From Nitrospirota bacterium (lineage in GTDB: Bacteria > Nitrospirota > UBA9217): DNA of 64,000 nucleotides. Positions 5,299-45,397 of this stretch are shown here, in pieces (the first letter of the stretch is position 1; each line of letters opens with the position of its first letter). Position numbers and translations under genes: made by a program. Below the pieces are notes generated by a model. The model was given only the letters and a program-made list of their open reading frames with translations. It ran no database searches and was not told the origin of the DNA. Location of the stretch: the NCBI GenBank assembly GCA_963755045.1, contig CAVWIL010000007.1, positions 485,243 to 549,242 of the forward strand. Reading direction: 5' to 3'.

Positions 5299-6739
5299 CT
5301 AGGTCGTATCTCTCGAAGGAATTTTAAGTTTTTGACCGACACGGAGGTGTTTTCCATGCTTGAGGTTGTTCGTCTCCACGATCCTCTGGATGCTTGTGCG
5401 ATATCGTATCGCGATCGTCGAAAGGGTTTCTCCCCTTCTCACCCGATGAACAACATATTTGACCTGCGGAGGAGACCATTTTGGCAGGGTATCGATTTTG
5501 GCAAGCAGCGCGTCTTTCATTCCAAAAGGGACCTTGAGGTCATATACCGTATTCGGCGTGGCCGCGTACCGCAGCTCGGCGTTCAGGTTCACCAGGTCAT
5601 CATATGAACAAGAGATATTTTCCGAGATTTTTGAGAGTTGCAAAGGCTTTTCAATGGCCACGACTTCATAGGGAATGCGTTTTTCCAGTTCATCAAAGGT
5701 GAAGCCGTACTTGGCCGGATCTTTGAGGATCGTGAGGACAGCGAGGAAGCGCGGATAGTACCGGGCTGTCTCGCGCGGAAGCCGCCCATAGAGGTCCCAG
5801 AAATTATCGAGGTAGTCGATCTTCTGCTGCCTGATGACCCGTAACACGTTCCCTTCCCCGCAATTGTACGCAGCGAGCACTGTTGCCCAGTCGCCGAACA
5901 TCTGGTGGAGCTCCTTGAGGTACGCTATGGCCGCAGCCGTGGACTTATCGGGATCGAGCCGTTCATCGACCCATGAGGTGCGTTTGAGACCGAACTTATA
6001 GCCCGTTGAAGGTATGAACTGCCAGAGGCCGAGGGCACGCGCCTTGGAATAGGGCCCTAACCTTGAACCCGCTCTCGATCAGGGGGAGCCACGTGATCTC
6101 CTCGGGAATCCCTGCTTCGTGAAAGGATTTTACCATCTCGTCCCGGTATCTGCCCGAGCGCTTATAGGATTCAATAAAATAATCCCGTTCGATGGTTTGG
6201 AAAGACTTGATCTCACGCTCCACATGTTCATTCATGACAAGGGGTATTTCCTTGTGCAGGCCGTTCACCGAAGTGAGGCGCGACGTATATATCTCCATGA
6301 GCCTCTTCGAGATCACGAACCGCAGATCATCCTTCTGCTGGCTGCTCTTTCCTTCAGCGTCCGCCGGCGTTTTCAGGATGAGTGCGTATGCATGGTCCAG
6401 GGCCTCGACAGCTTTCTCGGCATCTCCCGCCGCCCAGAGCTCATGTGAGGTCTCAGTAAGTTCAAGCGCTGTATCGAGGAGGCTCTCCTCTGCCGGCACA
6501 ACGTTCCCGTTCTTGGTATCTTCCTCGGGTGAATCTTCCTCGTCATCCCCCGCTTCTGCGTTTTGATCGGGTTGAGGGTTTGCCTGATCGAGCAGCACGC
6601 CGGCTGCGCCATTTTCGGCAACCGAGGACTGTAAGCTCGCGATGTGCTGAGCCGGCTTCTCCGGAGATGTGTGTGCGGCACAACCGATCAGAAGAAAAGA
6701 TGAGATGATTGCAGCGTATGATATACCGAGTGTTTTCAT
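5299..6739 (-). pseudogene. membrane-bound lytic murein transglycosylase (SLT domain plus C-terminal LysM; MltD-like lipoprotein), interrupted by a frameshift near 6045-6065
   Basis: N-terminal part (ORF 5996..6781, lipoprotein signal LLIGCAAH, IESGF) and C-terminal part (ORF 5299..5901, AYNCGEGNV and LysM) lie in different frames. The SLT motif SKARALGLWQFIPSTG is readable only after a 1-nt shift. Confidence 0.75.
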
Positions 6740-6875
6740 GTTCATGCAACGGATAGTACTCCATGTTGCACGCAAATGCAATTATTTTTTTATTGGATGT
6801 GGCTTGCCTTGCAAAACAGGATGAATAACGGTATAGTATGCGTGCTTTCTTTCCACTGTCCGGTGAACTAGGCCT

Positions 6876-18653: not shown

Positions 18654-20160
18654 TCAGCAACTCGCAAACTCGATTAATTTACTCTTCTCCTTCTTCATCT
18701 GCGGGAACAGGATGACGTCACGGATGGAGCTGGCTCCCGTAAGGAGCATCACCAGGCGGTCGATGCCGATCCCCTCTCCGGCGGCCGGGGGCATGCCGTA
18801 CTCGAGTGCGCGTATGAAGTCTTCGTCCATCTGGTGGGCCTCTTCGTCCCCTGCCTCGCCTTCCGAAACCTGCTTAAGGAACCGCTCTTTCTGGTCCACC
18901 GGGTCGTTCAACTCGGAGAAGGCGTTCGCCAGTTCCCTCCCGACAACGAACAGCTCGAACCGCTCAACAAAATTCGGATTGTCGTCACATTTCTTCGACA
19001 GCGGCGATATGTCCGTCGGGTAGTCGGTAATAAAAGTGGGTTGAATAAGCTTGGGCTCGACAAGCGCCTCGAAGATCTCATTCAGTACCTTTCCCAAAGG
19101 TTCTCCGCCCGTAAGGTGCGCGCCGAGTTTTTTCGCATACTCCCGGGCCTTCACACCATCGGTCAGGACCTCGTCGGATACGCCTGCTTCGCGAAGCGCG
19201 TCGAGGTAGGTTGATCCGCTTCCAGGGCGGCGAAAGATTGATCAGGTGTCCCTCATATTCCACTTCGGTCTTGCCGAGGACATCCTGTGCTATGCTGCTG
19301 ATCATCTGCTCGGTCATGTCCATGAGGACGCGGTAATCAGCATAAGCCGTATAGAATTCGAGCATGGTGAACTCGGGATTATGGCGCGTGGAGATGCCTT
19401 CATTCCTGAAATTGCGGTTGATCTCGTAGACCCTTTCAAAACCGCCCACGAGGAGCCGCTTAAGGTACAGCTCCGGCGCGATGCGCAGGAAAAGGTCCAT
19501 GTCCAGGGCGTTATGGTGGGTCTTGAACGGCTTTGCCGTCGCCCCGCCTGGAATGGACTGCATCATCGGCGTCTCGACCTCGATGTACCCGCGTTCGTTC
19601 AGAAAGCCCCTGATCGCCTGGACGATCTTCGTGCGGAGCAGAAAAACCTTTCTGACATCCGGATTCACGATCAGGTCCAGATACCGCTGTCGGTAGCGGA
19701 GCTCGACATCCGTCAAGCCGTGCCATTTTTCGGGCAATGGGCGGAGCGATTTTGAGAGGAGCGTAAATTCCTCGATGTCGATCGTAAGTTCATTGGTCTT
19801 GGTACGGAACAGAAAACCCTTCACGCCCATGAAGTCGCCGATGTCGAGCTTTTTAAAGAAAGCGTATTTGTCCTCGCCAAGCGTGTTTTTCTGGAAATAG
19901 AACTGGATCCTTCCCGATCCGTCCTGGAGATGGCCGAAACCCGCCTTGCCGAAGCTCCTCATGGCAACGATACGTCCGGCAACAACGATATCAACCCGCG
20001 TTTTTTCAAGGTCTTCCTTGCTCGTTTGTCCATACTGGTCGATAAGGCCCTGTGCGGAAACAGACACGTCGAACCTTCCCGCATACGGACGAATGCCCAT
20101 CGCGCTGATCTCTTCACGCTTCTTAAAGCGCTGCTGGATCAACTCGTTGTGATCTTCCAT
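18654..20160 (-). pseudogene. lysS: lysine--tRNA ligase (class II), interrupted by a +1 frameshift near 19205-19215
   Basis: ORF 19078..20160 matches LysS until [12 protein letters not shown] and then goes out of frame. ORF 18654..19154 carries the C-terminal part. Removing one base in CGGATCAACCTAC restores ...[13 protein letters not shown]... Lys-RS is essential, so a sequencing error is likely. Confidence 0.85.
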
Positions 20161-20354
20161 GAAAATCCCCTTTACCGTGATGATAAACTCAATCGCCGAT
20201 TATACTGATTATATGCGGAATCGTCAAGGATAAACAAGCTTCATGAGCAGATTTGATGAGGAATTCCGCTCGCCGCAGGCCTCCTGATGTCCAGAATGGA
20301 AATCGTGCTAAAATTAAAGCAAAGAGTTATGTGCTATAAGACGGAGGCTTAAAA

Positions 20355-21261: not shown

Positions 21262-21498
21262 TCCGTGGGAGCGACTATCTTTGAGGCTGTTTGGAAAGCA
21301 GAGGGTGTCTCTCTCGCCTTTCATTTAAATCCCCTCTTCAAAAGTTGAAAAATGCAACAAAAAAGTCTTTCCCTGATGACTCTTTTTTCATCGGTACATT
21401 CGGAAGGACTCCATCCTACTTGACATTACTATAAAATCGCGCTTTCCTTTAATTGTGAGATGATTCTTAACGCAGTCTGTTAAGAAAGGAGATTTATT

Positions 21499-22053
21499 AT
21501 GGCAAAGCGTGAAGATAAGAAACTTGACCTGAATGAGGTCATGGAGATATACAGGAAGGTCGGAACTCCGGGTGCTCCTCATAAACTGCTGTCAAAACTG
21601 GTGGGCAGTTGGAACACGAGATCCAGGGGGTGGGAGGAACCTGATAAGCCACCGAGAAAATCGCTCGGCACCTGTGAACAGACGCTGATCCTGGACGGCC
21701 ATTACCTGCGGCAGGAGTATACAGGCGACATGATGGGAGTGCCATTCACCGGTATCAACATCCTGGGGTATAACAACCATACGAAGAAGTATGAGTCGAT
21801 CTGGATCGATTCGCTGAACACAGCCATCTACTATTTCGTAGGTACTGCAAGCCCGGACGGCAGGATCATCACGCAGGAATGCAGCTATGACGACCCGGTG
21901 AGGGGTCCCAGTGTCTGGCGCAGTGTAACGAAGATCAAGGATGACAATACCCAGGAGTTCGAGATGTTCATTACTCCCAAAGGAGGCAAGGAAGAGAAGA
22001 TGATGGAGATGACGGTTACACCCAAAGTAGCCGACGTTCGCAAGGCAGCATAG
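21499..22053 (+). CDS. DUF1579 family protein
   Basis: LVGSWNT ... GTCEQTLILDGHYLRQEYTGDMMGVPFTGINILGYNN pattern recalled for DUF1579. Good RBS AAGGAG. Confidence 0.5.
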   Translation: MAKREDKKLDLNEVMEIYRKVGTPGAPHKLLSKLVGSWNTRSRGWEEPDKPPRKSLGTCEQTLILDGHYLRQEYTGDMMGVPFTGINILGYNNHTKKYESIWIDSLNTAIYYFVGTASPDGRIITQECSYDDPVRGPSVWRSVTKIKDDNTQEFEMFITPKGGKEEKMMEMTVTPKVADVRKAA

Positions 22054-22131
22054 GCAACATGCAATGTAATAGGCCGGAGAAAGGCTTCTTCTCCGGCTTT
22101 GATGTTCTCTGCTGACAAAGGGGGTGATCCC

Positions 22132-22659
22132 ATGAAAGCACTATTCATAAGCGCGGACACATATGAGGACTCGGAGCTTCTTGTTCCCTACTATCGGTTG
22201 CTTGAAGAAGGGCTCGAGGTGGACATCGCGTCCATGAAGAAACAGCCTATTAAAGGCAAACACGGCTATAAGGTCGAGGTGACCAAAACCCTGGCGGAGG
22301 TCAAGCCGGAGGACTATGACATTCTGGTGCTTCCCGGAGGCAAGGCACCTGAAGCGGTGCGAAAGGAGAGGAAAGCGGTGGAGATCGCGAAAGATTTCTT
22401 TATGAAGGGAAAGCCTGTCGCCGCCATCTGTCACGGACCGCAGACGCTTATCACAGCAGGCTTATTGAAAGGCAGGCACGCCACCTGTTACCGGACCGTC
22501 GTGGACGAATTGAAGGCAGCCGGTGCGATCTACGAGGACAAAGAGGTGGTTGTTGACGGCAATCTTGTAACCTCGCGTCAGCCCTCGGACCTTCCCGCAT
22601 TCATGCGGGAGACCATGAAGATGATATGCAGCATTGAGCAAAAGTCGAAAGCTGCATAA
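22132..22659 (+). CDS. DJ-1/PfpI family intracellular protease/glyoxalase
   Basis: ATG 22132 after an AAGGGGG RBS. Nucleophile elbow AICHGP, LPGG. Confidence 0.8.
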   Translation: MKALFISADTYEDSELLVPYYRLLEEGLEVDIASMKKQPIKGKHGYKVEVTKTLAEVKPEDYDILVLPGGKAPEAVRKERKAVEIAKDFFMKGKPVAAICHGPQTLITAGLLKGRHATCYRTVVDELKAAGAIYEDKEVVVDGNLVTSRQPSDLPAFMRETMKMICSIEQKSKAA

Positions 22660-22784
22660 TCATGTAGCCGCAGAAAGGCACACCCTGCACTTGCTGGTCC
22701 CGAGGCTTTGCAGTTTCATAACTCAACGCGTAACTCACGCACGCTTTGAGTTTTAGCTAGGAGCCATTCCCTAAGAATGAGATG

Positions 22785-23243
22785 TCAGAATGGCTCAACC
22801 TGGATACGATTTCCCTCAAGACGTACTTCGGACACTCCGGTTTCATCGTCATTCAAGTCGCGTGTGCTGACCTTGGCCACGCCCGAAAATTCGTTGTCTC
22901 CAGGCCGGGGAGTGATATGTATTCGAGTCTTGGTGCTTCCGATCCACTTTCTGTCTTGATCGAATCGAAACGCAATATAGGTGGCATCAAATTCCCTATC
23001 CCCGACCCGCTTCCAGGCACCATGCCCTCCACTGAGTACCGGATGCGTATCCCCGCTTCGAAAAAACGTTCCATCCGACGAAAATGTAAGGAGGTTCTTT
23101 CCCACACCAGACGGGCGACTGGCTGTCACGATCCACGCCCCGACCAATCCTCGGCTCGTTTCGCCAGGAGCACCAAGAGATGAGCAACCGGCAACGAGCA
23201 GTGTAATCATCGCGGTGAAAAGATTGTATTGGATCTTGATCAT
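22785..23243 (-). CDS. hypothetical lipoprotein
   Basis: Lipobox LLVAGCSS. No family recognised. Confidence 0.45.
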   Translation of the reverse strand: MIKIQYNLFTAMITLLVAGCSSLGAPGETSRGLVGAWIVTASRPSGVGKNLLTFSSDGTFFRSGDTHPVLSGGHGAWKRVGDREFDATYIAFRFDQDRKWIGSTKTRIHITPRPGDNEFSGVAKVSTRDLNDDETGVSEVRLEGNRIQVEPF

Positions 23244-23484
23244 GGTTATCTCCCTTTATTATGACTGCCCCAACCTCTATCAACCATCTTTGTTTCCCAC
23301 AGGCCCTTACCAGTTACCATACAATGTCTCACTATATGATTCCTCCATGGTAACGGGCAAGAGGTGTCTCCTATGCTGAGACTGCGGGAGGGTAAAGCTG
23401 TTCTGCCTTCGAACAAATCTTGTCGTAAACTTGTATTTGCAGTGCACAATCCGCAATCCGAAATTCGAAATCAACAATCGACAA

Positions 23485-24042
23485 TTACCTGCTTCCTACG
23501 GTCTCTACCCACGTCGCAAAGGCAAGCATAAACTTCCTGGCAAATTCACGGGTCGATTCATTGACAAGGCTGCCGTGCTCGTCGAAGAGATCCGCGGCTT
23601 GCCCGATGTAAGCTTCCGGCTGTTGCATGGCCGGCATATTCAGGAACACCATCGATTGTCTCAAATGGTGGTTCGCGCCAAAACCGCCGATGGCGCTGGG
23701 CGAAACACTGACTACGGCACCCGTTTTTCCATCCCACGCACTTTTGCCATAGGGACGGGAACCCACATCAAGAGCGTTCTTGAGCGCTCCAGGAACTGAA
23801 CGGTTGTATTCAGGCGTGACGAACAGGACACCGTCAACATTCCTTATGCGTTCACGGAACTCGGTCCAGGCGGCCGGCGGATTGTCTTCACTGTCCTGAT
23901 TGTAGAGCGGAAGACCTCCGATCTCGATGAGTTCGAGTTTGAGAGAACCGGGCGAAAGCTTCATCAGCTCCTTTGCCATTTTGCGAGTGAATGATTCCTT
24001 TCGAAGGCTTCCTACAAGAACAGCGATTATTTTCTGTGCCAT
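23485..24042 (-). CDS. NAD(P)H-dependent FMN reductase family protein
   Basis: IIAVLVGSLRKESF ... LFVTPEYN motifs of the flavodoxin-like FMN reductase family. Confidence 0.8.
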   Translation of the reverse strand: MAQKIIAVLVGSLRKESFTRKMAKELMKLSPGSLKLELIEIGGLPLYNQDSEDNPPAAWTEFRERIRNVDGVLFVTPEYNRSVPGALKNALDVGSRPYGKSAWDGKTGAVVSVSPSAIGGFGANHHLRQSMVFLNMPAMQQPEAYIGQAADLFDEHGSLVNESTREFARKFMLAFATWVETVGSR

Positions 24043-24078
24043 TGCATCCTCCCTGCCAACAGGAAAGCGATTCCTCCG

Positions 24079-24594
24079 CTACTTGTTCTGTCCTGCGCCT
24101 TGCTTCTTGGAGACTTCAAGACTGAGCGCTGCCGATATGGTTTGGTTTACGTTGAGACGACAGATTGCCAGGGCCGTGATTGATGGCCCCTTGACTTTGT
24201 TCGCCGGCATGCAATGGAGGTCGCGAAGGCTGTTCCCTTCCGCCGTGCATTTGCCTTCGCCGAGAATCGCCAGGCGGACCTTTTTGACGAGATCAATTGT
24301 TTTTTCATTCTTGGGGATTGCGTTCACGCGAAATTCGAGGCGGCGCAGCTGCTGGGCGATGTCACTATAAAAAGCCTGGTGCTTGCTGAAGGCGGCCTTA
24401 TTCGTCCCCGATTGCGTGAGCAGCGTTTCGATGAAGTCATCGGTTTTTTCTTGGATGGTCGTTAGGCTTTTGTCGGTCACCTCGTCATAGTCGGAAATCA
24501 GCTTGACTCCCGCGCACCCAGCCAGCAGGATTGCGCAAAGGATGGCGACCCAATACGTGGGAACCCGATTTCTCGATAAAGACACTTTATTCAT
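24079..24594 (-). CDS. hypothetical lipoprotein
   Basis: Signal peptide with lipobox LLAGCAG. No family recognised. Confidence 0.4.
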   Translation of the reverse strand: MNKVSLSRNRVPTYWVAILCAILLAGCAGVKLISDYDEVTDKSLTTIQEKTDDFIETLLTQSGTNKAAFSKHQAFYSDIAQQLRRLEFRVNAIPKNEKTIDLVKKVRLAILGEGKCTAEGNSLRDLHCMPANKVKGPSITALAICRLNVNQTISAALSLEVSKKQGAGQNK

Positions 24595-25138
24595 AATATC
24601 CTCCTGCACGCAACGGGTGAAATAACATCCGCAAAGTTTCTTGTCGGTGTTCTGTTCTCAATGTTCCGGCCATGGCATCCGCAAAGCATACTATCTCAAA
24701 TTTCAAGTTTTGGTCCTGTCCCTTCGTGCCAGGTCCCGTGTGATTAGGGAAGCGATGTCCTCCACGGCATGGGGGTACGGGGGTACTCACGTGCCGGCGA
24801 ACTTTGTCTCATGGTCTCTGTTCCTTTCTACGCTTTTGATCTGTCCGATTGATCAGGGACTTTTTCAAATGCATCTCAGGCGGCTTGTTATGAAGTATAC
24901 CATACATTCCCCTTATGTCCTTCGTTGAAGCTGCTCTTAAAATTTCGACCCACAACGGGTGCAACGGGGCTAGCACCCTTATAACGTTATCAGCATTTTT
25001 ACTGCCCACGCCGTGAGCCATTTTGGGGCTGGTTAATAACCATGAGACCTGAACAATCATTTGGACACGGCCTGGAACCGAAGATTTTCTGGTCCGTCAT
25101 AAGACGTAATGGGTCAATGGATCAATGTTGTACCATGC

Positions 25139-25315
25139 TGACCTTAATCCTGATGGGCGATCCCGCCATGGCGGGATAGAGACTGACACCGAAATCCCGC
25201 CAAGGCGGCACAATGGTACGGATGAAGATAACGGAAAGGCTCGACGAGAAACGTGCCGTTTCTCGCCACAAGATAGCTTTTCCCCTTGACGGTGCCCTTT
25301 AAATGGATGACCCTA
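25139..25315. repeat. structured inverted-repeat element, copy A (outer terminus TGACCTTAATCCTGATGGG); left boundary of the adhesin cassette
   Basis: About 85% identical to the reverse complement of 31491..31667. Three internal palindromes: CCCGCCATGGCGGG, CCGCCAAGGCGG, GAGAAACGtgcCGTTTCTC. Confidence 0.85.
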
Positions 25316-25544
25316 TCGCCTCCTTCCTTGATTTGTGCTTGGTTTCCCGTTTTCTTTTTCGAATCAAGCAATTGTTACTGTTTTATTTGTCTGGCCTATT
25401 TTGATGATTATGCCTTTTTTGATAATTTTTATCTCATTTTTATCATAGTAAATAACATGAACTTATGAGTACGTCAAAGGCGCCTCTGTGACTTTTTAAT
25501 TCTATAATAAGTTTCTTTTGCCTGCTCTTCGCCATTAAATAGTC

Positions 25545-25589
25545 AAAAAAAGGCCAGACATGACTGTCTGGCCTTCTCAAATTTTTTTA
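25545..25589 (-). terminator. intrinsic terminator downstream of the giant adhesin gene (A-tract, GGCCAGACA-loop-TGTCTGGCC, T-tract; potentially bidirectional)
   Basis: Perfect 9-bp GC-rich stem flanked by A7 and T7 runs, 14-30 nt after the stop codon at 25603. Confidence 0.8.
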
Positions 25590-25602
25590 ACTGCGCAGGA
25601 CA

Positions 25603-28600
25603 TCACTTGAAATATGCGTTGATGATGTGGTTCGCCATGATGTTCGTGAAGGTGAAGCTGGTTAGTGCACCCCTATTTGCACCGTCAACGATCACGCTCC
25701 GCACTTGCCGACCTGTATTCGGTGTGATCGTATAGGTCTGGCTGGCGCCTTTGTTCACCGTCGTTGTACCCGATGGTGTGATGCTTCCGTTGACGTCCGC
25801 TGCCGCTGTTATGATATAGACGTTCAGCATGAAGGAAGCACTGATCGTGTGGTTTCCCTGAACATTAGAGAAGGTGTACGAGGTCGGCGCCCCTACTGAT
25901 GCCCCGTCCACCTGAACGTCGGCCACGCGATAGCCCGCGGCAGCGGAGAATGTAAACTTCTGGCTTGCGCCACTCAGCACTGTCAACGTGCCAGGAGATA
26001 TGGTGCCGTTCGCTCCCGCGCTAGCCGTGATTGTGTACGACGGATTCGTTCCAAATGTCGCCGAAATCGTGTGGTTGCCAGTTAAGTTCGTAAAGGCATA
26101 CGTAGCCACGGCACCGACCGACGCTCCATCAACGAGGACATCCGTGATACGGTATCCTGCTGTAGGCGTGATGGTGTAGATCTGGCTGGCACCAATGTTC
26201 AAAGTGTTAGTGCCCAACGGCGATATGCTCCCCCCTGCTCCTGCACTGGCCGTAATGGTATAGGTAATGACCTTGAAATAGGCGTTGATGGCATGGTTCG
26301 CCGTAATGTTCGCAAAGGTGTAGCTGGTTATTGCACCCCAGTTCGCGCCGTCAACAAACACGCTCAGCACCTGATATCCTTGATTCGGCGCGATCGTATA
26401 GGTTTGGCTGTTTCCCTTGTTCACCGTTGTCACGCCCGACGGCGTTATGCTGCCGTTGACGTCGGCTGCAGCCGTAACGGTATAGACATCCAGGGTATAG
26501 GCTGCACTGATCGTGTGTGGCGTTTGGACGTTGTAGAAGGTGTACGAGGTTGGCGCTCCTACTGATACCCCGTCAACCAGAACGTCGGCCACGCGGTACC
26601 CCATATTCGGCGTGATGGTGTAAGTCTGGTTTGTGAACTCCGGCACGGATGCCGTGCCTGTCGGCGATATGCTGCCATTCGGCCCCCCACTGGCAGTGAT
26701 GTTGTAATACAGTATCAGGGTAAATGTCGCCGAGATGGAGTGGTCCTGTGTTATATTGGCAAAGGTATATGCCGTCAAGGGACCAGCAGATGTTCCGTCA
26801 ATGTTCACATCGACTATCCGGTACCCCGCATTTGGCGTGATGGTGAATGTCTTGTTGGTGCCGCCCAGCACTGACACGTTGCCCGACGGTGACAAGGTGC
26901 CGTTAGCTCCGGCGCTGGCCGTGATGGTGTATGATGGATTCGCTTCAAATGTCGCCGCAATCGTGTGGTTGGCCATTACGTTCGTGAAGGTATATGTGGT
27001 CGCCGCGCCGACTGACACCCCGTCGACCTGGACATCCAGGATATGATACCCGGCCGTGGGCGTTATGGTGTAGGTCTGGGTGGTACCAATGTTCAACGTG
27101 GTCGTGCCCAAGGGCCATGTTATGCTCCCCCCGCTCCCGCACTGACCGTGATGGTAAACGTCTTCACCTTGAAGTATGCGTTGATGGTGTGGTTCGCCGT
27201 AATGTTCGTAAAGGCGTAGCTGGTAATTGCACCCTTGCTTGAGCCGTCAACAACCACGTTCTGCACATCGTACCCTGCATCCGGGATGATCGTGTAGGTG
27301 GGGCTGTCCCCCTTGTTCACCGTTATCGTGCCCAACTGCGTTATGCTGCCGTTGACGTCGGCTGTAGCCGTAACGGTATAGACATCCAGGGTAAAGGTCG
27401 CGCTGATCGTGTGGTCCGTCTGGACGTTGGAGAACGTGTACGAGGTAAGCGCACCTACTGAGACCCCGTCAACCAGAACGTCAGCTACGCGGTACCCCGC
27501 ATTCGGCGTCATGGTGAATGTCTTCCTGGTGCCGCCCACCACAGACACGTTGCCCGACGGCGACAAGGTGCCGTTCGGTCCGGCGCTTGCCGTGATGGTA
27601 TACGATGGATTCGCTTCAAATGTCGCCGCAATCGTGTGGTTGCTCGTTACGTTCGTAACGGTATACGTGCTCACCGCGCCGACTGACACCCCATCGACCT
27701 GGACATCCAGGATATGGTACCCGGCCGTGGGCGTTATGGTGTAGGTCTGAGTGGTACCAATGTTCAACGTGGTCGTGCCCAAGGGCCATGTTATGCTCCC
27801 CGCTCCCGCACTGACCGTGATGGTAAACGTCTTCACCTTGAAGTACGCATTGATAGTGTGGTTCGCCGTAATGTTCGCAAAGGTGTAGCTGGTTATTGCA
27901 CCACTATTTGCACCATCAACGATCACGCTCCGCACATCGTAACCTGCATCCGGGATGATCGTGTAGGTGGGGCTGTCTCCCTTGTTCACCGTTGTCACGC
28001 CCGACGGCGTTATGCTGCCGTTGACGTCGGCTGCAGCCGTAACGGTATAGACATCCAGGGTAAAGGTCGCGCTGATCGTGTGGTCCGTCTGGACGTTGGA
28101 GAACGTGTACGAGGTAAGCGCACCTACTGAGACCCCATCAACCAGAACGTCAGCTACGCGGTACCCCGCATTCGGCGTCATGGTGAATGCTCCATTCCCC
28201 CCGGTGGGGACGGTCACAGCGCCTGACGGCCTGATGCTGCCGTTTGGTCCGGCTGTGGCAGTCAAAGTAGGAGCGGCCGTAGTCATGGTGAATATCTGAG
28301 TTCTTACGGTTTCGGCGTTCCCGGCATTATCAGTCGAGGCGAATCTCAGATCAGTTGATTTTAATATTGTAAAAGCCCCACGGTATAAGGTTGCCGGGGT
28401 ACAACCGGTGCCGAGGCAATAGTAGGTAGTGTTGCAGCCGGTCTCACCGCCGTCATTGCAGTTCAAAGTAATGCGCTGGGCAGCGCTATACGTCCCTCCT
28501 GCGGGTGATGCCGTTGTTATTGGCGGAGTGGTGTCTGATACCGGATTCGCTCCGAACGTTGCCGCTATGGTCATGTCGGCAGTGATGTTGCCTATGGTGT

Positions 28601-30577
28601 AGGAGGTGTAGGCACCTACTGAGCTCATACCTCCTGCTGCCGGTCCAGCTTTCACGTCTAAAACCTGAGACCCTATACCTGGCGTTATGATGCATTCTGA
28701 GCTCGAGTTGTAGCCCACCGAGGTTGGGACGCACGAGATACGGCCGGAGCCAAGTTTCAAATCCCCTAGCACAGTGGCCTGACCTTGATCATTGCGGCCC
28801 CAGGCGACCACGGTCCCGTCGCTCTGCAGGGCCGCGGTATGATACGCTCCTGCCGCCATTACGATAACCCTGTTTAGGCCAGCCGGCACGGTGCTCTCAC
28901 CGTACGTGTTATCGCCCCAAGCGACCACGGTCCCGTCGCTCCTAAGGGCAACGGTATGATATGTTCCTGAGGATATAGCAATGACACCTGCGATGCCCGC
29001 AGGCACGGCGCTCTCGCCATATAGGTTACCGCCCCAGGCGACCACGGTGCCGTCGCTCTTCAAGGCCACGGTATGATACGCCCCTGCCGCTATTGCGGTA
29101 ACACCGCTAAGGCCAATGGGCACGGCGCTCTCGCCGTAAGTGTTACCGCCCCAGGCGACTACGGTGCCGTCGCTCTTCAGGGCCACGGTATGATGCGCTC
29201 CTGCCGCTACTGCAGTAACATCGCTTAGGCCAACCGGCACGGCGCTCTCGCCGTAAGTGCTATCGCCCCAGGCGACTACGGTGCCATCGCTCTTCAGGGC
29301 CACGGTATGAGACCCTCCCGCCGCTATGTAGGCAACATTCGTCAGGCCCGCCGGCACAGTGGTCTGACCTTGATCATTCTTGCCCCAGGCCGCCACGGTC
29401 CCGTCGCTCCTAAGGGCCACGGTATGGCCCCCTCCCGCCGCTACCGCGGTAACACCGGTGAGACCGGGTGCCACGGCACTCTCACCGTACGAGTTATCGC
29501 CCCAGGCGACCACCGTCCCGTCGCTGTTCAGGGCTACAGTATGACTATCTCCTGCTGCTATGGCCGGTGTGTTTGTCGTTACGCGGTATCTGGTTATAAG
29601 GTTAAGGCCGGCAGGCGGAGTGCCCTCACCGTATGAGTTCCTTCCCCAGACCTCCACGGTGCCGTCGCTCTTCAAGGCCACCGAATGTTCTTTTCCTGCC
29701 ATTAGAGCAGTAACACCGATGAGATCAACAGGCACGATGCTCTCACTGTAAGTATTATCACCCCAAGCCGCGACGGTACCATCGCTCTTTAGAACTGCCG
29801 TATGATTCGTTCCGGGTGCGATAGCTACAACACCTGTAAGGCCCGCAGGCACATTGCACTGACCCTCCACGTTCCTGCCCCAGGTGACAATAGTCCCATC
29901 CGTCTTCAGAGCGACCGAATGATACCCCCGGCTGCGATACCGGCAACACCGGTAAGACCGGCAGGCACAGTGCTCTCACCGTTTGCGTTATAGCCCCAGG
30001 CCACCACTGTCCCGTCGCTCTTCAGGGCCAGCGTATGATACCCTGCTGCCGCTATTGCGATCACGTCAGTCAGACCGACAGGCACATTGCTCTGACCTTG
30101 ATCGTTATAGCCCCAGGCCACCACTGTCCCGTCGCTCTTCAGGGCCACGGTATGATAGGCACCAGCTGCTATGGCTGTAACGCCGGAAAGGTACGGAGGA
30201 ACCGAGATCTGACCGTAAAGGTTTTGGCCCCAGGCCACCACCGTCCCGTCATTCTTCAAGACTACTGAATGATATGCCCCTGCTGATACAGCGGTGACAC
30301 CAGTAAGGCCAGCAGGAACATCAGTTTGCCCATAATAGTCATAACCCCAGGCCGCCACCGTCCCGTCGCTCTTTAGGGCCACGGTATGATAAAAACCTAT
30401 TGCTATTGCAGGCTGTGTGAACAACATCGTGATTTCGGCCGATACCGGTCTTCCGATTAGCAAAAGAGCGATGGCAAGCGTCATGACCGGAAGCCATGCT
30501 TTTCTGCGTATCTCTTGTTTGAACCGCCTTGTGATATCGTTCTCTCTCGTTCCGCGCCGTGCGCCCCACTCCTCCAT
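25603..30577 (-). pseudogene. giant secreted/cell-surface repeat protein: N-terminal signal anchor, ~16 RCC1 repeats, then ~12 tandem near-identical divergent InlB B-repeat (Ig-like) modules. Split into three ORFs by two frameshifts in poly-G/C runs.
   Basis: ORFs 29906..30673, 27120..29870 and 25603..27111 continue one another. RCC1 repeats read ALKSDGTVVAWG. C-terminal modules read TYTITPNAGYRVADVLVDGVSVGA ... YTFSNVQTDHTISATF. The frame breaks sit at CCCCC 29925-29929 and CCCCCC 27127-27132. ATG 30577 has a GGGGAG RBS. Confidence 0.8.
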
Positions 30578-31016
30578 AGTGCTCTCCCCTCTCAAATATC
30601 TGTTTCGCCTGCAAGGCAATGCATCTTGTCCCGGCATAACGTTTTCAGCTCCCACCAAAAACATGAATATCATCCTAACAGTGATACTGGTTCTGAAGAC
30701 CGTTACATTCCCTGTAAGATTTCCTTTTTTTCAAGACAATCGGTCATCCGATGCCCGTCAGCAAAAAGAAAAAAATAAAGCAGCTTGGATGCCGATGAAC
30801 GCAATAGTACTGATTCGATTTTTTGAGATGAGTAAAAACCGGGATAGAATGCTTTGTTATGGATTTAAATGGGCAGAGTAAACAGATGCTTCAATAATAT
30901 TAAAATAGCATAGTAATGAAATTCATGTCAATACATATTTTATTTATAGCGGCCGCGATTAGCACTACGATTTCCCTGACCACCGGCAAGCTCTATCGGG
31001 CATGGGAGGCGTCCCG

Positions 31017-31056
31017 CTCTTGTGTCCAGGGTACCGGGTTCGCTACAACCAGTACT
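31017..31056 (+). repeat. 40-45-bp direct repeat (copy 1) in the AT-rich region upstream of the adhesin gene
   Basis: CTCTTGTGTCCAGGGTACCGGGTTCGCTACAACCAGTACT matches 31292..31336 (ATCTTGTGTCCACGGTATACCGGGTGCGCTACACGAGCGGGTACT). Confidence 0.6.
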
Positions 31057-31291
31057 ATCGCAGTTCTACTACAAGTATTAAGACTGACCGCACTAAATTA
31101 ATATACTTCTTCATATTATGCCGTATTTTCTGATTAATTCCTTAATAAAGCAAAATTTATACCAATAATTAGCATATTGAATTTATACATAATTTAATTT
31201 GTTTTTTTTGAATTATTATATAATGTAAGAAAATCCGACAATATTTGCACCCTCAATGAATCACTCCGCTGATGGCAGCCGTGTAAGTTTT

Positions 31292-31336
31292 ATCTTGTGT
31301 CCACGGTATACCGGGTGCGCTACACGAGCGGGTACT
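31292..31336 (+). repeat. 40-45-bp direct repeat (copy 2) upstream of the adhesin gene
   Basis: See copy 1. The two copies bracket about 230 bp of AT-rich DNA at under 30% GC. Confidence 0.6.
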
Positions 31337-31490
31337 AAATCGGCATAACCGTTAAGACGGTCCGCTCCTGGGACATGCGGGGTGGGGTGAGAAGCGAACC
31401 AACCTGCCGATTCCGGCGATGGGGGAAACACAAAAAGCATTGATCCTTTTCGCTTTCCAAAAGTTCCCAGGACCCGACAGGGGACCTGAC

Positions 31491-31667
31491 AGGGGCACCC
31501 ATTTAAAGGGCACCGTCAAGCGAAAAAAGCTATCTTGTGACGAGAAACGAAACGTTTCTCGTCGAGCCTTTTCGTTAGCCTCAGCCTTAGCATTGTCCCG
31601 CCTCGGCGGGATTTCGGTATCAGTCTCTATCCCGCCATGGCGGGATCACCCATCAGGATTAAGGTCA
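31491..31667. repeat. structured inverted-repeat element, copy B (inverted relative to copy A); right boundary of the adhesin cassette
   Basis: Reverse complement aligns to 25139..25315 over about 177 bp. Palindromes are preserved: CGACGAGAAACGaaaCGTTTCTCGTCG, CCCGCCtcGGCGGG, CCCGCCATGGCGGG. Confidence 0.85.
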
Positions 31668-31717
31668 TTGGTGAAGCGCTTTATCCATTGACACTTTCCG
31701 CCTTCTGGCGGACCATA

Positions 31718-31815
31718 GGCTTTTGGGGGACGTAGTGACCGAGATGAACTTATTCTTTTTCTGCAAGTGTTAAGTGCATTTAATCAACTTCGGTCATTAC
31801 GTCCCCTTTCGGTCC
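31718..31815 (+). repeat. dispersed repeat family R2, copy a (long hairpin GGGGACGTAGTGACCGAG ... CTTCGGTCAtTACGtCCCC)
   Basis: About 90% identical to 32721..32818. Overlaps the 3' end of the PilZ gene. Confidence 0.8.
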
Positions 31816-32511
31816 CGTGTCTTCGATATTTTTAACGCAGTCTATGAATCTTATAAGCAACGGCCTGCCCCGATCCGTCACTCCTGAGAATTCTACCCCT
31901 ATGTCGAAACTTGCATGCACCCTATCCTGCAGCATGCGACATGAAACGATTTTTCCCACAAAGCTTACAAGATCACAAGCGTCGAGTGACAACTCCAGGA
32001 AGACCAGGCCGTCTATCTTCATTTCATGATCAGTTTGAATAATTATACCCTTTGGGCTGATATCTTTTATGCTGAACTGCGTTGGCAGATTCAGAACTTT
32101 TCCGCTGGTCGTTGTGATGATAAACCGGATATCGCGATAGAACCAGTCAGTCTGCTCCGGCACTTGTGTTTTTTTGTTATTTTCAATTGAATCAAGAAAA
32201 TCCTTAACCGTACCTGTGAATTCATTTTTGAAAAACATACCTACCGAGTAAATAGTTATTTTTTCCCCATCAGCTCTTTCTTCAATTCCGCTTAATTCGG
32301 AACGAACCACTATTCCCTTTACATTAATATGTTTTCCCTCGTGTTCCAACATCATCAAACACTCTTTCCCTATATTGAGCTTCCTGTCAGCCTTTAACGC
32401 AACTCCGCCCAAGCTTATATCAACAATTTCTACTTTACCAACTAGGCTCATCTTGCTACTCAGATCGATTAAATCCAATTTGAATCTCTGGTGTTTCCTC
32501 ATATTCCGCAT
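31780..32511 (-). CDS. tandem PilZ-domain protein (c-di-GMP receptor)
   Basis: Two PilZ-like modules: RKHQRF ... DISLGGVAL, then a second beta-barrel region. Flanked by R2 repeats. Confidence 0.65.
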   Translation of the reverse strand: MRNMRKHQRFKLDLIDLSSKMSLVGKVEIVDISLGGVALKADRKLNIGKECLMMLEHEGKHINVKGIVVRSELSGIEERADGEKITIYSVGMFFKNEFTGTVKDFLDSIENNKKTQVPEQTDWFYRDIRFIITTTSGKVLNLPTQFSIKDISPKGIIIQTDHEMKIDGLVFLELSLDACDLVSFVGKIVSCRMLQDRVHASFDIGVEFSGVTDRGRPLLIRFIDCVKNIEDTGPKGDVMTEVD

Positions 32512-32720
32512 TATGTAACTCCAATTGCTATCGTCTCCGATTTCGTATTGATGACGAGGACGGGTACAACTTCAGGAAGGTCATCGCACATGTTTTAATA
32601 TTAACACTTCTATAGCGAATTGCAAGACTCAGACTATCTCATGTCAAGCTAAAATAATAATGTCCGGTTTTTAAGGAACAGTAATTGGCTGTTCCTGGTT
32701 TATTCGTTTTGGCTTATGCA

Positions 32721-32818
32721 GGCATTTGGGGGACGTAGTGACCGAGATGAACGTATTCTTTTTCTGTAAGTGTTAAGTGCATTTAATCCACTTCGGTCAC
32801 TACGGCCCCTTTCGGTCC
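32721..32818 (+). repeat. dispersed repeat family R2, copy b
   Basis: GGCaTTTGGGGGACGTAGTGACCGAGATGAAC.TATTCTTTTTCTG.AAGTGTTAAGTGCATTTAATC.ACTTCGGTCA.TACG.CCCCTTTCGGTCC is shared with copy a. Confidence 0.8.
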
Positions 32819-32927
32819 TTAACATCGAAGATCTGACTCCGATTGGTCCCCATATTCGATTCGAAGATGACGGGAGATAAACGACTGTATCACGAATAAA
32901 AAGAGAATGTCAAAAGGGCACTTGACC

Positions 32928-33251
32928 CTATTTGTTTGACTGCTGCTGAAGTCTTGGCATTCTCAGGATCCTTTCACTTCGCCAGATCCGAACAATACGC
33001 ACTTTGTTTTTATCATATCGATAAACAATGCGAAAAGGAGGGTAAATGATCTCTCGCAGATGTTCGACATGAAACTCAGGTACGACGCGACCGCTCAGCG
33101 GATGCGCGCCCAGCCGCTCAATCTTTGTAATGATCTCAGCAATAAGCCTTGTCCCCACATCATGCACACCTTCGCCCGCGTAGTAGGACTGCATGTCCTC
33201 AAGGTCCTTGATCGCCGAAGCAGCAAATGTTATCCGTGCCTGTTCAGCCAT
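32928..33251 (-). CDS. parE: type II toxin-antitoxin system toxin, ParE/RelE family
   Basis: ERLGAHPLSGRVVPEFHVEHLREIIYPPFRIVYRYDKNKVRIVRIWRSER matches the ParE fold. Overlaps the upstream antitoxin gene by about 22 nt. Confidence 0.7.
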   Translation of the reverse strand: MAEQARITFAASAIKDLEDMQSYYAGEGVHDVGTRLIAEIITKIERLGAHPLSGRVVPEFHVEHLREIIYPPFRIVYRYDKNKVRIVRIWRSERILRMPRLQQQSNK

Positions 33252-33526
33252 GGGATCACTTCAGACCAAGGCGCTTTTTCGCCTCGGAGAGCGGTGATCT
33301 CGCGGCCTTCTTCCAGGTCCATCAGCCCCTTCACGACTCCCTGCATAAAGGCGCGCTCTTCGGTCTCTTCCTCATAATCCTTGAGCGATCGGACCACGGC
33401 AACTCCGCGGCCCCTGCTCGTGAGTAAAATAGGCCGGTGCGTCTCTTGCGCGTGGGAAACCACCTTGCCGGGGTTCACCTTCAGGTCGCTGAGGGGGACG
33501 ATGTCTTCGGAAAACTTGGTACTCAT
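33230..33526 (-). CDS. type II antitoxin, Phd/YefM family
   Basis: SDLKVNPGKVV ... PILLTSRGRGVAVVRSLKDYE pattern. Directly upstream of the ParE gene. Confidence 0.7.
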   Translation of the reverse strand: MSTKFSEDIVPLSDLKVNPGKVVSHAQETHRPILLTSRGRGVAVVRSLKDYEEETEERAFMQGVVKGLMDLEEGREITALRGEKAPWSEVIPWLNRHG

Positions 33527-33747
33527 AATAGACCTCCTTAATGGTATTGTTAATAGGTCCTATTATAGCACTTATATACAGGTCTGTATATAAGTGCTTC
33601 TTAATGGAAGGTCAAGCCGCAAGACCCTATTGCCTTCTCATGCATGCCTTCTTCTTTTAAAAAAATCACCTTGTCGTATTGTTGCGCATATTGTAATATG
33701 TACCCGAACTCAAATCAACGGCCTGCGGCCAACTAAGGAGGATCGTA

Positions 33748-34134
33748 ATGGAACCAAAGAAATTTTTATTTGTCCTGTCCCATGCAACGTCAAATCCCAT
33801 GGAAGTGATCGTCATGCTTAAAATCGCCTCCAATATGAAGGCATTCGACGACACGGCAGAGGTGGCGGTTTTTCTTGTCGGTGAAGGCGTCCAGCTTGCC
33901 AAAAAAGGAGTGGGAAAAACCATATCCATGGAATTGGAAGGCAGTCAAGTCAATGTCGGTGAGCTGATGGATATGACCGTCGATCTTGGTATTAAGTTTT
34001 ATGTATGCCACGCCTTCATGACTGGCTTCGGCGTTCTCAAGGAAGAATTTATCGAAAATGCGGAAATGAAATCGAGTTCCTACCTCGGCGAGCTGCTCCT
34101 GGCCGGCTACACTCCCTTTCCAATGGCGATGTAG
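33748..34134 (+). CDS. DsrE/DsrF-like (TusD-like sulfur-relay fold) family protein
   Basis: KFLFVLSH ... AEVAVFLVGEGVQLAKKG pattern. Good RBS AAGGAGG. Confidence 0.5.
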   Translation: MEPKKFLFVLSHATSNPMEVIVMLKIASNMKAFDDTAEVAVFLVGEGVQLAKKGVGKTISMELEGSQVNVGELMDMTVDLGIKFYVCHAFMTGFGVLKEEFIENAEMKSSSYLGELLLAGYTPFPMAM

Positions 34135-34252
34135 CTGCGATTCGGACTCAGGTAATGAAAGAATCTCAGGGGACATCCCATATTTATTCTTGACAGAATC
34201 AATATAGGATGTCCCTTTTCATTTCCCCTTTGAGCAGGTCACCTGCAGCGGG

Positions 34253-35164
34253 TCAGATACGATGAGCAGTTCCCCGCTCTTCCAGAAATTGCCGCACTTC
34301 CGCAAGCCGTGGAATGCCCGCCCGTCCGCCGAGCTTCCTGCACTTCATAGCAGCAACAGCCGACGCAAAGCGGATCGTGTCTTTGAGCGGCCACTTTTGA
34401 AGAAGGCCGTAGAGGTAGCCGCCGTGAAATACATCTCCGGCGCCGGTTGTGTCCACGATCTCGACGGAAAATGCGGGACAGGAAATCACCACATCATCCG
34501 CAAAGGTAACGCTTCCCCGGTTGCCAAGGGTGATGGTCGTGATACCGAAGCCAAGCTTCCTGACCTCCTGTCTGAACGATCCCGGATCATCCTTCCACCC
34601 CAGTTCCCTGGCGAACTCTTCGGATCCGACCACATAATCGCAGATGCGGGCAAGCTCAAGCATTCCGTCCCGGACACGGCCTGCGTCAAGCATCACGGGA
34701 ACGCCGGCTTTCCTGGCCTCCCGCGCGCTGAAAAGCGAAACGTCCTTCATGAGACCATCAAGGAGGAGAAACTCGGCATTGCTCAGGAAATCCTTCGGGA
34801 GTTCTTCCATTGCTAGCGAATCGCCGGTTGGCCGTTTCCAGAAGATCGTACGAGTTCCCATGGATTTATCGATGGCAATGAATGCAGTCTGGGACGAAGC
34901 GTTCGTTCGCTTGACCAGCCCTGCGACAGCGACTCCCTCTTCTATCAGAGACTTCCGGATTGCTGCGCCTTCCCGGTCATCTCCAATAACACCGTAGAAT
35001 TGGCAGGGCGCACCAAGACGCGACAACGCGGCCAACGCCGTCGCGACCGGTCCCCCTCCCTGTTCTTCCCACACAAGCACTTCTTTTTTGGTATCAGTCT
35101 GCGGAAAGCGATCGACAACCGCGAGCATATCCCAGGCACACTGCCCGATCCCCACAACAGCCAT
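34253..35164 (-). CDS. PfkB-family carbohydrate/nucleoside kinase (ribokinase-like)
   Basis: ATG 35164 after an AGGAGG RBS. Ribokinase signatures GGGPVATA and DTTGAGDVFHGG. Confidence 0.8.
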   Translation of the reverse strand: MAVVGIGQCAWDMLAVVDRFPQTDTKKEVLVWEEQGGGPVATALAALSRLGAPCQFYGVIGDDREGAAIRKSLIEEGVAVAGLVKRTNASSQTAFIAIDKSMGTRTIFWKRPTGDSLAMEELPKDFLSNAEFLLLDGLMKDVSLFSAREARKAGVPVMLDAGRVRDGMLELARICDYVVGSEEFARELGWKDDPGSFRQEVRKLGFGITTITLGNRGSVTFADDVVISCPAFSVEIVDTTGAGDVFHGGYLYGLLQKWPLKDTIRFASAVAAMKCRKLGGRAGIPRLAEVRQFLEERGTAHRI

Positions 35165-44248: not shown

Positions 44249-45208
44249 TCAATTCTTGCCACTGTCTTTGGCCTTCATCGGATCGGCCCAGCTGCCTGCG
44301 CCGCTTTTCCCGTCTAGAAACGGAATCGCGGCTTCGGTCAATTTCGGCGATAAGAACATCTCGTAGTGAGTGAGATCCGGCAGTATTGCAAGGCGGTTTT
44401 TCGACATATATTCGCGCTTCCAGCCGGCATCCTTCAGCCCCCCGCCGAGAAGCTGGTAGAACTTTACAATGTGCTCGGGACGAATCATGTCGCTGTCGCC
44501 GTAGATCAACATAACCGGCATGGCAAGTTTCTTGACATCTTCCGACCAATCGTATGGTTTGCGCATCATCTCGCCCATTCGGTCCAAAAGCTTCGGGAAA
44601 TCCTCCGGGTGTGGAGCAATCGCGATGTATGACTTATACATCGGCGTCTCTTTCATGAACTCTGCCATCGCGGCGCCGACTTGCGCCTGCTGCGGCAGCA
44701 TCTCGTGATAAAATCCGTCCTGCGCATACGGAGTCGAAACCAGGACCAGGCGCCGTACCATCTCTGGATGCTGCACCGCAAACCGGAGAGCGACTCCGCC
44801 GCCCATGGAGTAATCGAGGACATCTACCTATCCATATCCGAGATTCTTGAGGATGACTGTCATGTCGTTGCCCATGTCAATGAGGCTGATCGGTCGATCT
44901 CCCAGCGTGGTGCGGCCGTGGCCATGGAGGTCTACGGCTACAACCTGCCGATTTTCCACAAGCGCGGGGAGCGCCGGCCCAAACATCTCGATCTGGCCCA
45001 GTCCGCCGTGCAAGAGAAGCAATGGTTCCCCCCGCCCCCGGATTTCGTAGTAATAATTCACACCGTTTGCGGCGACATATCCGCTCTTAACAACATGCGC
45101 CTTATCAGCGCGCATCCCGTTTTTGACGAAGTATGATATCCCGATCCAGGCCACTGCGGCGAGAACGACCACCATAATGATCGCTATGGCAACGTTTCTC
45201 TTGTTCAT
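44249..45208 (-). pseudogene. alpha/beta-fold hydrolase with an in-frame TAG stop (44828..44830) just upstream of the nucleophile elbow
   Basis: ORF 44828..45208 (signal/TM, HGGLG) and ORF 44249..44806 are in the same frame. The junction reads ...NLGYG-TAG-VDVLDYSMGGGVA... Confidence 0.7.
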
Positions 45209-45397
45209 GCTATTCTCCTTACTCTATCGGTTATGGTTCGGTTACCCGACGAAGATTGCTGTCTCTTGCGGACCTGGTGCAGGCGCGACAACACACCTGT
45301 TGTTACCTCATCCTCCGCGGTGATTTCGCGCCTTCGATTAGAGAACGATTGACGGCAATTTATGCACATTCCAATAAAGAACAAGAAAACTATCAAT

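Follow-up and report, generated by a model that had tools for sequence, protein, structure and literature searches.

A repeat-protein gene split at two G-runs in a Nitrospirota assembly is very probably intact in the organism

Results and Discussion

Three Serial Reading Frames Are Pieces of One Gene

The assembly of a Nitrospirota bacterium (GCA_963755045.1) carries, in pieces, the gene of a giant exported repeat protein. We find it highly probable that the two frame breaks between the pieces are homopolymer consensus errors of a long-read (Nanopore-type) assembly and that the organism most likely has the gene intact. The gene lies on the minus strand of the stretch analyzed here, hereafter the window (64,000 nt; positions 485,243 to 549,242 of contig CAVWIL010000007.1, with coordinates below counted from its first letter), where it appears as three open reading frames (ORFs) in series: 30673..29906, 29870..27120, and 27111..25603. 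Each break would be a one-base undercall of a G-run, with a G6 read as G5 in one case and a G7 read as G6 in the other.

Do the three ORFs belong together? Adding one G to each of the two coding-strand runs joined them into one 1,690-codon ORF free of internal stops, which encodes 1,658 amino acids from its ATG (30575-30577) to the stop codon at 25603-25605. The start at ATG 30577 is kept (MEE[WS]...) in two intact orthologous loci, L002 and L003, and the repaired junctions read IAAGGYHSVALKTDG and SAGAGGSITWPLG, both the same as in the aligned L002 orthologue. All three segments, before and after the breaks, show equal codon bias at third positions and an equal ratio of synonymous to nonsynonymous changes, and there is thus no sign of decay. 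The gene is real and sited at 25603-30577; an earlier reading of the window from its letters alone (the sequence-only reading) had located it exactly, along with the breaks in runs of five and six C on the forward strand. Its parts, and the two junctions, are as follows.

25603..30577, minus strand: whole gene, an exported repeat protein of 1,658 amino acids once both G-runs regain one G
30437..30577, minus strand: N-terminal export signal, amino acids 1-47; a charged n-region, the hydrophobic core AWLPVMTLAIALLLIG, and then RPVSA/E (read from the sequence and from alignment with L002 and L003)
29592..30409, minus strand: first RCC1-like propeller, blades 1-7 of 39 amino acids each, with junction 1 in blade 5 (motif spacing, 117-nt tandem period, Pfam RCC1_2 and WD40_RLD)
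29925..29929: junction 1, C5 on the plus strand (G5 coding), one base below the G6 (Gly-Gly, GGG GGG) of every homologue
28746..29564, minus strand: second RCC1-like propeller, blades 8-14 of 39 amino acids each, after a 9-amino acid insert behind blade 7 (motif spacing, tandem repeats, Pfam)
28554..28745, minus strand: divergent module, amino acids 612-675, aligning with the C-terminal two-thirds of the canonical modules
28287..28553, minus strand: CHB_HEX_C_1 domain (chitobiase/beta-hexosaminidase C-terminal type), amino acids 676-764 (PF13290, E 2.2e-08, 34.4 bits against a cut-off of 22)
25609..28286, minus strand: 12 Flg_new_2 modules of 74-75 amino acids, of three types in the order (A-B-C)(A-B-C)A(A-B-C)(A-B)
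27127..27132: junction 2, C6 on the plus strand (G6 coding), in module 6, one base below the G7 or AG6 of homologues

Both breaks occur in the longest homopolymers of the gene. Once repaired, it contains only five runs of at least 6 nt (31 of 5,073 nt), that is, a single G7 and four G6, and the breaks take the sole G7 and one of the four G6. Under uniform placement, the chance that both would land in such runs is ~(31/5073)^2, or roughly 4e-5, and their homopolymer location is far from random. Such a location is expected for basecalling error and for in vivo slippage alike, so location alone cannot separate error from real mutation.

Homologues Are in Frame at Both Sites

How do other copies of the gene read at the two junctions? 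For junction 1 we compared six: L002, L003, a strain-level contig (L082), and three Joint Genome Institute (JGI) metagenome contigs (L085, L086, and L087) returned by a metagenome scan with the junction 1 pattern; a scan with the junction 2 flanks gave no match. L002 and L003 match the gene at 88% and 84.5% DNA identity, respectively, and each is one uninterrupted ORF. Five of the six copies have a G6 at junction 1, including L082, which is 97.7% identical to the window and in frame at this site; the sixth, L087, also encodes Gly-Gly there by GGG GGG, with a GCG codon in front. Sites of the junction 2 kind are a G7 in L002 (two sites), L086 (one), and L087 (two), and an AG6 in L003. Outside the window, then, out-of-frame copies number 0 of 6 at junction 1 and 0 of 6 at junction 2-type sites, and among the copies examined only the window lacks a base at each. 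Module 3 has a paralogous site (near 27800), a G4 that is in frame; the only natural length difference found is one of 3 nt, which preserves the frame.

Beyond the junctions, the repaired protein is collinear with that of L002 over its full length (85.5% amino acid identity; 4 gap columns over 1,689) and collinear with that of L003 as well, and L087 carries an ORF of 1,662 codons. The blade and module counts therefore match those of independent assemblies. At each break the sequences differ cleanly by 1 nt, with flanks that are otherwise identical.

The Same Sequence Is Broken Elsewhere

If the breaks are errors of the assembly, is there other damage nearby? Three further genes in the window are interrupted.

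18654-20199, minus strand: lysS (lysyl-tRNA synthetase, essential), split by one extra A at 19211-19212 (ATCAACC vs. ATCACC)
5299-6781, minus strand: SLT/LysM lytic transglycosylase gene, split by a 1-nt insertion at 6050
44249-45223, minus strand: alpha/beta-hydrolase gene with an in-frame TAG at 44828-44830 (...LGYG*VDVLDYSMGGG...)

The two halves of lysS cover positions 2-164 and 185-308 of the tRNA-synt_2 profile, and removal of one A yields a 501-amino acid protein that matches positions 2-495 of 496 of TIGR00499 (679 bits; cut-off 428). An exact look-up of the gene adjacent to lysS, aimed at a strain-level copy, gave no match, so this repair rests on profile coverage. The SLT/LysM gene is intact (481 amino acids) in a contig 98% identical to the window (L084). 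With an essential gene and this one both broken by 1-nt indels within the same 64 kb, the sequence is demonstrably error-prone. The two parts of the hydrolase cover consecutive positions of the Abhydrolase_1 profile, and its TAG could be a true nonsense mutation or an erroneous substitution.

Near-identical strains show the same kind of damage, each in its own places. L082, although in frame at junction 1, breaks the same RCC1 gene by a private indel at window position 30031; in L083 an Fe-S biogenesis gene is truncated by a private indel; and in L081 moeA is split. Between the window and L082 we counted 17 gap openings (18 gapped positions) in 5.2 kb, one of them being that which breaks the L082 copy, and 12 gaps in 6 kb separate the window from L083. 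Indel differences among near-identical strains thus come to about one per 300-500 bp.

Run lengths in the window have a ceiling: there are no G or C runs longer than 6 in the 64 kb (47 runs of 5 and 12 of 6), and shorter related loci hold several of 7-8. This is a weak hint that G/C homopolymers may be systematically compressed in the assembly.

A Nanopore-type Origin Fits, with Reservations

The nearest relatives of the window are Nitrospirota metagenome-assembled genomes (MAGs) of the MFD series. These MAGs were assembled from Nanopore data alone, with Flye followed by a single Medaka round; errors associated with Nanopore and effects of homopolymers are acknowledged by their authors (PMC12313526). 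According to a benchmarking study, frameshifts are a common result of homopolymer indels in Nanopore consensus sequences, and bins below ~40x still need polishing (PMC9262707). Proteins exactly matching those of the window are also found on a contig whose size class (0.2-1 Mb) is typical of long-read assemblies and fits such an origin. The window has several features in common with unpolished long-read MAGs, in which 1-base homopolymer errors split genes into serial ORFs (PMC9262707, PMC12313526), essential genes too suffer sporadic indels, and assemblies of the same strain differ by private indels.

Several points weigh against consensus error as the cause. With true lengths of 6 and 7, the runs are short and of a kind usually resolved by current chemistries at good coverage; R10.4-type data reportedly resolve most homopolymers of <11 nt when coverage is adequate (PMC9262707). 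Errors at a G6 and a G7 therefore imply low coverage or an older chemistry. The run lengths are those of the assembly sequence alone, and the platform is inferred from the relatives and the error pattern. The lysS and SLT/LysM defects are insertions outside long homopolymers, which is another type of error than a deletion in a G-run, and slippage in vivo would favor homopolymers just as basecalling does. Even so, we hold homopolymer error to be by far the best account of the breaks, and the case carries a caution: long repeat genes with G/C runs are easily split in unpolished long-read MAGs, where they mimic pseudogenes or phase-variable loci, and the real protein is regained by correcting the frame with the help of orthologues.

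Real Mutation, Phase Variation, and Misassembly

What else could have broken the gene? The strongest competitor, itself unlikely, is that both breaks are real and fixed, making the gene a recent pseudogene in this strain through slippage at two G-runs. Loss or inactivation is frequent among genes for surface proteins, homopolymers are natural hotspots of mutation, the longest ones of the gene hold both breaks, and the in-frame TAG of the hydrolase is not a typical homopolymer error. However, 1-nt indels also break the essential lysS and the SLT/LysM gene nearby, a strain 97.7% identical is in frame at junction 1, and two independent breaks would be unusual in a gene with no other stops and the same codon-position bias downstream of them.

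The sequence-only reading had offered three causes—homopolymer sequencing error, slipped-strand phase variation, and collapsed repeats—and the evidence favors the first. Under phase variation, the two G-tracts would be reversible ON/OFF switches of a surface adhesin that the assembly happened to catch in the OFF/OFF state. Both breaks do fall within G-runs of an exported repeat protein, as in the homopolymer contingency loci of Neisseria, Campylobacter, and Gardnerella, where G/C runs lie inside surface-type coding regions and tract length sets the frame. In Gardnerella, homopolymer tracts are associated with genes for InlB-B-repeat surface proteins, and variation in tract length was shown for a GA-module gene (PMC11287997). 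The 3-nt difference at the paralogous site of module 3 (G4 vs. G7) also shows slippage at this motif over evolutionary time. Unlike contingency loci, however, the tracts are 6 and 7 nt when in frame (5 and 6 in the window), under the working threshold of ≥8 bp for phase variation (PMC11287997). Both tracts simply encode Gly-Gly and are conserved as coding sequence, that of junction 2 is interrupted (AG6) in L003, and every other copy is in frame at both sites. The second tract, at codon 1149, is deep in the gene and far from its 5' end, where a switch would be redundant with one at codon 217. Finally, the unrelated indels in the window, like the private ones of related contigs, account for the breaks without any switch. 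Phase variation of an adhesin in a Nitrospirota bacterium living free in soil or sediment would be moderately interesting if true, but the evidence is against it, and we consider it very unlikely, more so than a pseudogene.

The least probable cause of all is that the assembler collapsed or misjoined module repeats, leaving frame breaks and a wrong copy number: the 669- to 672-nt A-B-C super-repeats are 88% identical in DNA with 40- to 50-nt stretches at 100%, and the match of two strain-level contigs to the window ends close to the gene or within it, yet collinearity with intact orthologues contradicts a collapse, each break being a one-base deficit in otherwise identical flanks, and those two contigs do not join.

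The contigs in question, L081 (window 21430-24838, 99.5% identity) and L082 (window 29078-34265, 97.7%), belong to another assembly (ENA ERZ25039502), and both diverge abruptly where their matches end, L082 at 29078, inside the second propeller. We considered their junction as a sign of real gene deletion in a sister strain and rejected it; the divergent flank of L081 is unrelated high-GC DNA with frameshifted PD40-type fragments. Since they do not join and the L081 flank is unrelated, these contigs look fragmentary or chimeric.

Two Propellers and a Chain of Small Beta Modules

What kind of protein does the repaired gene encode? Its N terminus looks like a cleavable Sec signal peptide, with a hydrophobic core of 16 residues followed by a VSA/E site. 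A Tat signal was considered for the motif TRRFK and dropped; the RR pair is not kept in L003, so the signal is probably not of the Tat type.

The RCC1 array and the Flg_new_2 (divergent InlB B-repeat) modules, both named in the sequence-only reading, were confirmed by Pfam scan. Some 16 RCC1 repeats had been estimated, and motif spacing gives exactly 14: the motif H-x-x-A-L-K-x-DG...WG recurs 14 times at a spacing of 39 amino acids, with a single spacing of 48 between blades 7 and 8. Pfam RCC1_2 (PF13540) matches in 14 stretches with 444.9 bits (cut-off 22; E 1.6e-137), and WD40_RLD (PF25390) scores 451.3 bits (cut-off 150). As read from the sequence, the 7 + 7 blades are two seven-blade units, sets able to close a propeller. 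Matches of the full protein to Pfam MlaC and MlaD were set aside as summed weak repeat noise, with no qualifying stretches.

Downstream of the propellers, the count of about 12 modules held for the canonical ones, and it missed one further divergent module and the CHB_HEX_C_1 domain. The former (amino acids 612-675) had no Pfam matches when scanned alone; the match of the latter spans profile positions 1-66 of 67. Flg_new_2 (PF18998) scores 131.4 bits over the whole protein, in 8 stretches, and 27.6 bits for a single module (cut-off 23.6). At the protein level, the modules are 42-86% identical to a reference module. They had been described as near-identical, several with >95% DNA identity, which is true only of local stretches; whole modules reach at most 94% (module 3 vs. 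6), 89% (2 vs. 5), and 83% (1 vs. 4), and modules of different types are ~62-68% identical. Likewise, the pair given as an example (27775-27840 and 27110-27180) is identical over 60 nt but has a 2-nt difference in run length.

An AlphaFold2 model of one module (predicted local distance difference test score 97.2) is all-beta, with seven strands and no helix, and a Foldseek search of PDB chains with it found no significant match (best E 0.048). The label "Ig-like" that the modules had received is accordingly unproven, and it is not established that their structure is equivalent to an Ig fold or to the InlB B-repeat of Listeria. The modules resemble InlB B-repeat/Flg_new_2 surface modules in that they exceed the Pfam gathering threshold, are ~75 amino acids long, and stand in tandem in an exported protein. 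The host, however, is an environmental diderm rather than a Gram-positive pathogen, and the protein has no LPXTG or GW anchor. Profile scans detected no C-terminal anchor or sorting domain, and the protein ends directly after its last module.

To what class does the protein belong? Thousands of large proteins of Verrucomicrobiota, Planctomycetota, and other phyla match the plan of a propeller with a repeat tail, and this one is an uncharacterized, ordinary member of a very large known class, the exported bacterial RCC1-propeller repeat proteins. Like those annotated at JGI as "alpha-tubulin suppressor-like RCC1 family protein," it has short RCC1_2 blades, 14 in number, and then an extracellular-type repeat tail. 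Most homologues, in contrast, join their propellers to Ig, Calx-beta, FN3, or choice-of-anchor domains. The full plan, with CHB_HEX_C_1 and 12 Flg_new_2 modules, was found only in a small Nitrospirota-centered group (proteins P0001-P0010 and loci L002, L003, and L087), for which we found no experimentally characterized member. The Ran guanine nucleotide exchange function of eukaryotic RCC1 is not expected for an exported protein. From its architecture alone, the protein would probably be exported by Sec, with the double RCC1-like propeller as a ligand-binding head and with the CHB_HEX_C_1 domain and the chain of 13 small beta modules as an extended spacer or glycan-contacting stalk; "adhesin," as it had been called, is a function that one may infer.

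Among the proteins considered, several homologues (P0005-P0008) are ~1,424-1,451 amino acids long, roughly one 224-amino acid super-repeat shorter than the window protein. Going by lengths alone, this suggests that copy number may vary in whole A-B-C units. One MAG of the MFD series (MFD05942.bin.1.431), the source of L003, L004, and L008, contains at least three paralogues of this RCC1/Flg_new_2 gene family.

The Gene Is Conserved Without Its Surroundings

How far does conservation extend around the gene? Window positions 25545-30943, comprising the gene with ~370 bp upstream and ~60 bp downstream, are kept at 84-88% DNA identity in L002 and L003. The flanking genes there have nothing in common with those of the window, so synteny is lacking. 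In the window, the neighbors encode a PilZ protein, a ParE/Phd pair, a lipoprotein, and an FMN reductase and offer no functional clue. The upstream stretch shared with L002, where conservation runs to 30943, includes a candidate promoter.

30902..30931, minus strand: promoter-like site, TTGACA, 18 nt, TG, TATTTT (10 of 12 positions matching, by consensus match alone), ~325 nt upstream of the ATG

The whole gene is bracketed by a pair of inverted elements of ~180-230 nt, at 25139-25317 and 31488-31667 (25090-25317 and 31488-31715 when extended by BLAST), with 85-91% identity. The element is strongly structured (minimum free energy -93 kcal/mol, z = -6.0, with several perfect hairpins), occurs in the strain-level contig L082, and is absent from the L002 and L003 flanks. 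It could be a repetitive extragenic element, one resembling a miniature inverted-repeat transposable element, or a noncoding RNA. Rfam returned no gathering-level matches across the whole window, the inverted element included, and around the gene its single match, to MicC, was insignificant. We give very little credence to a more ambitious picture, in which the G-tracts would be real slippage-prone switches of 6-7 nt in environmental Nitrospirota, or the gene and its conserved promoter would lie in a variable locus between these structured inverted repeats and be moved or inverted as a cassette.

The window also has a direct repeat of 99 nt (31717-31815 and 32720-32818; 94% identity) that flanks the PilZ-domain gene (31780-32511, minus strand), and its first copy takes in the last codons of that gene.

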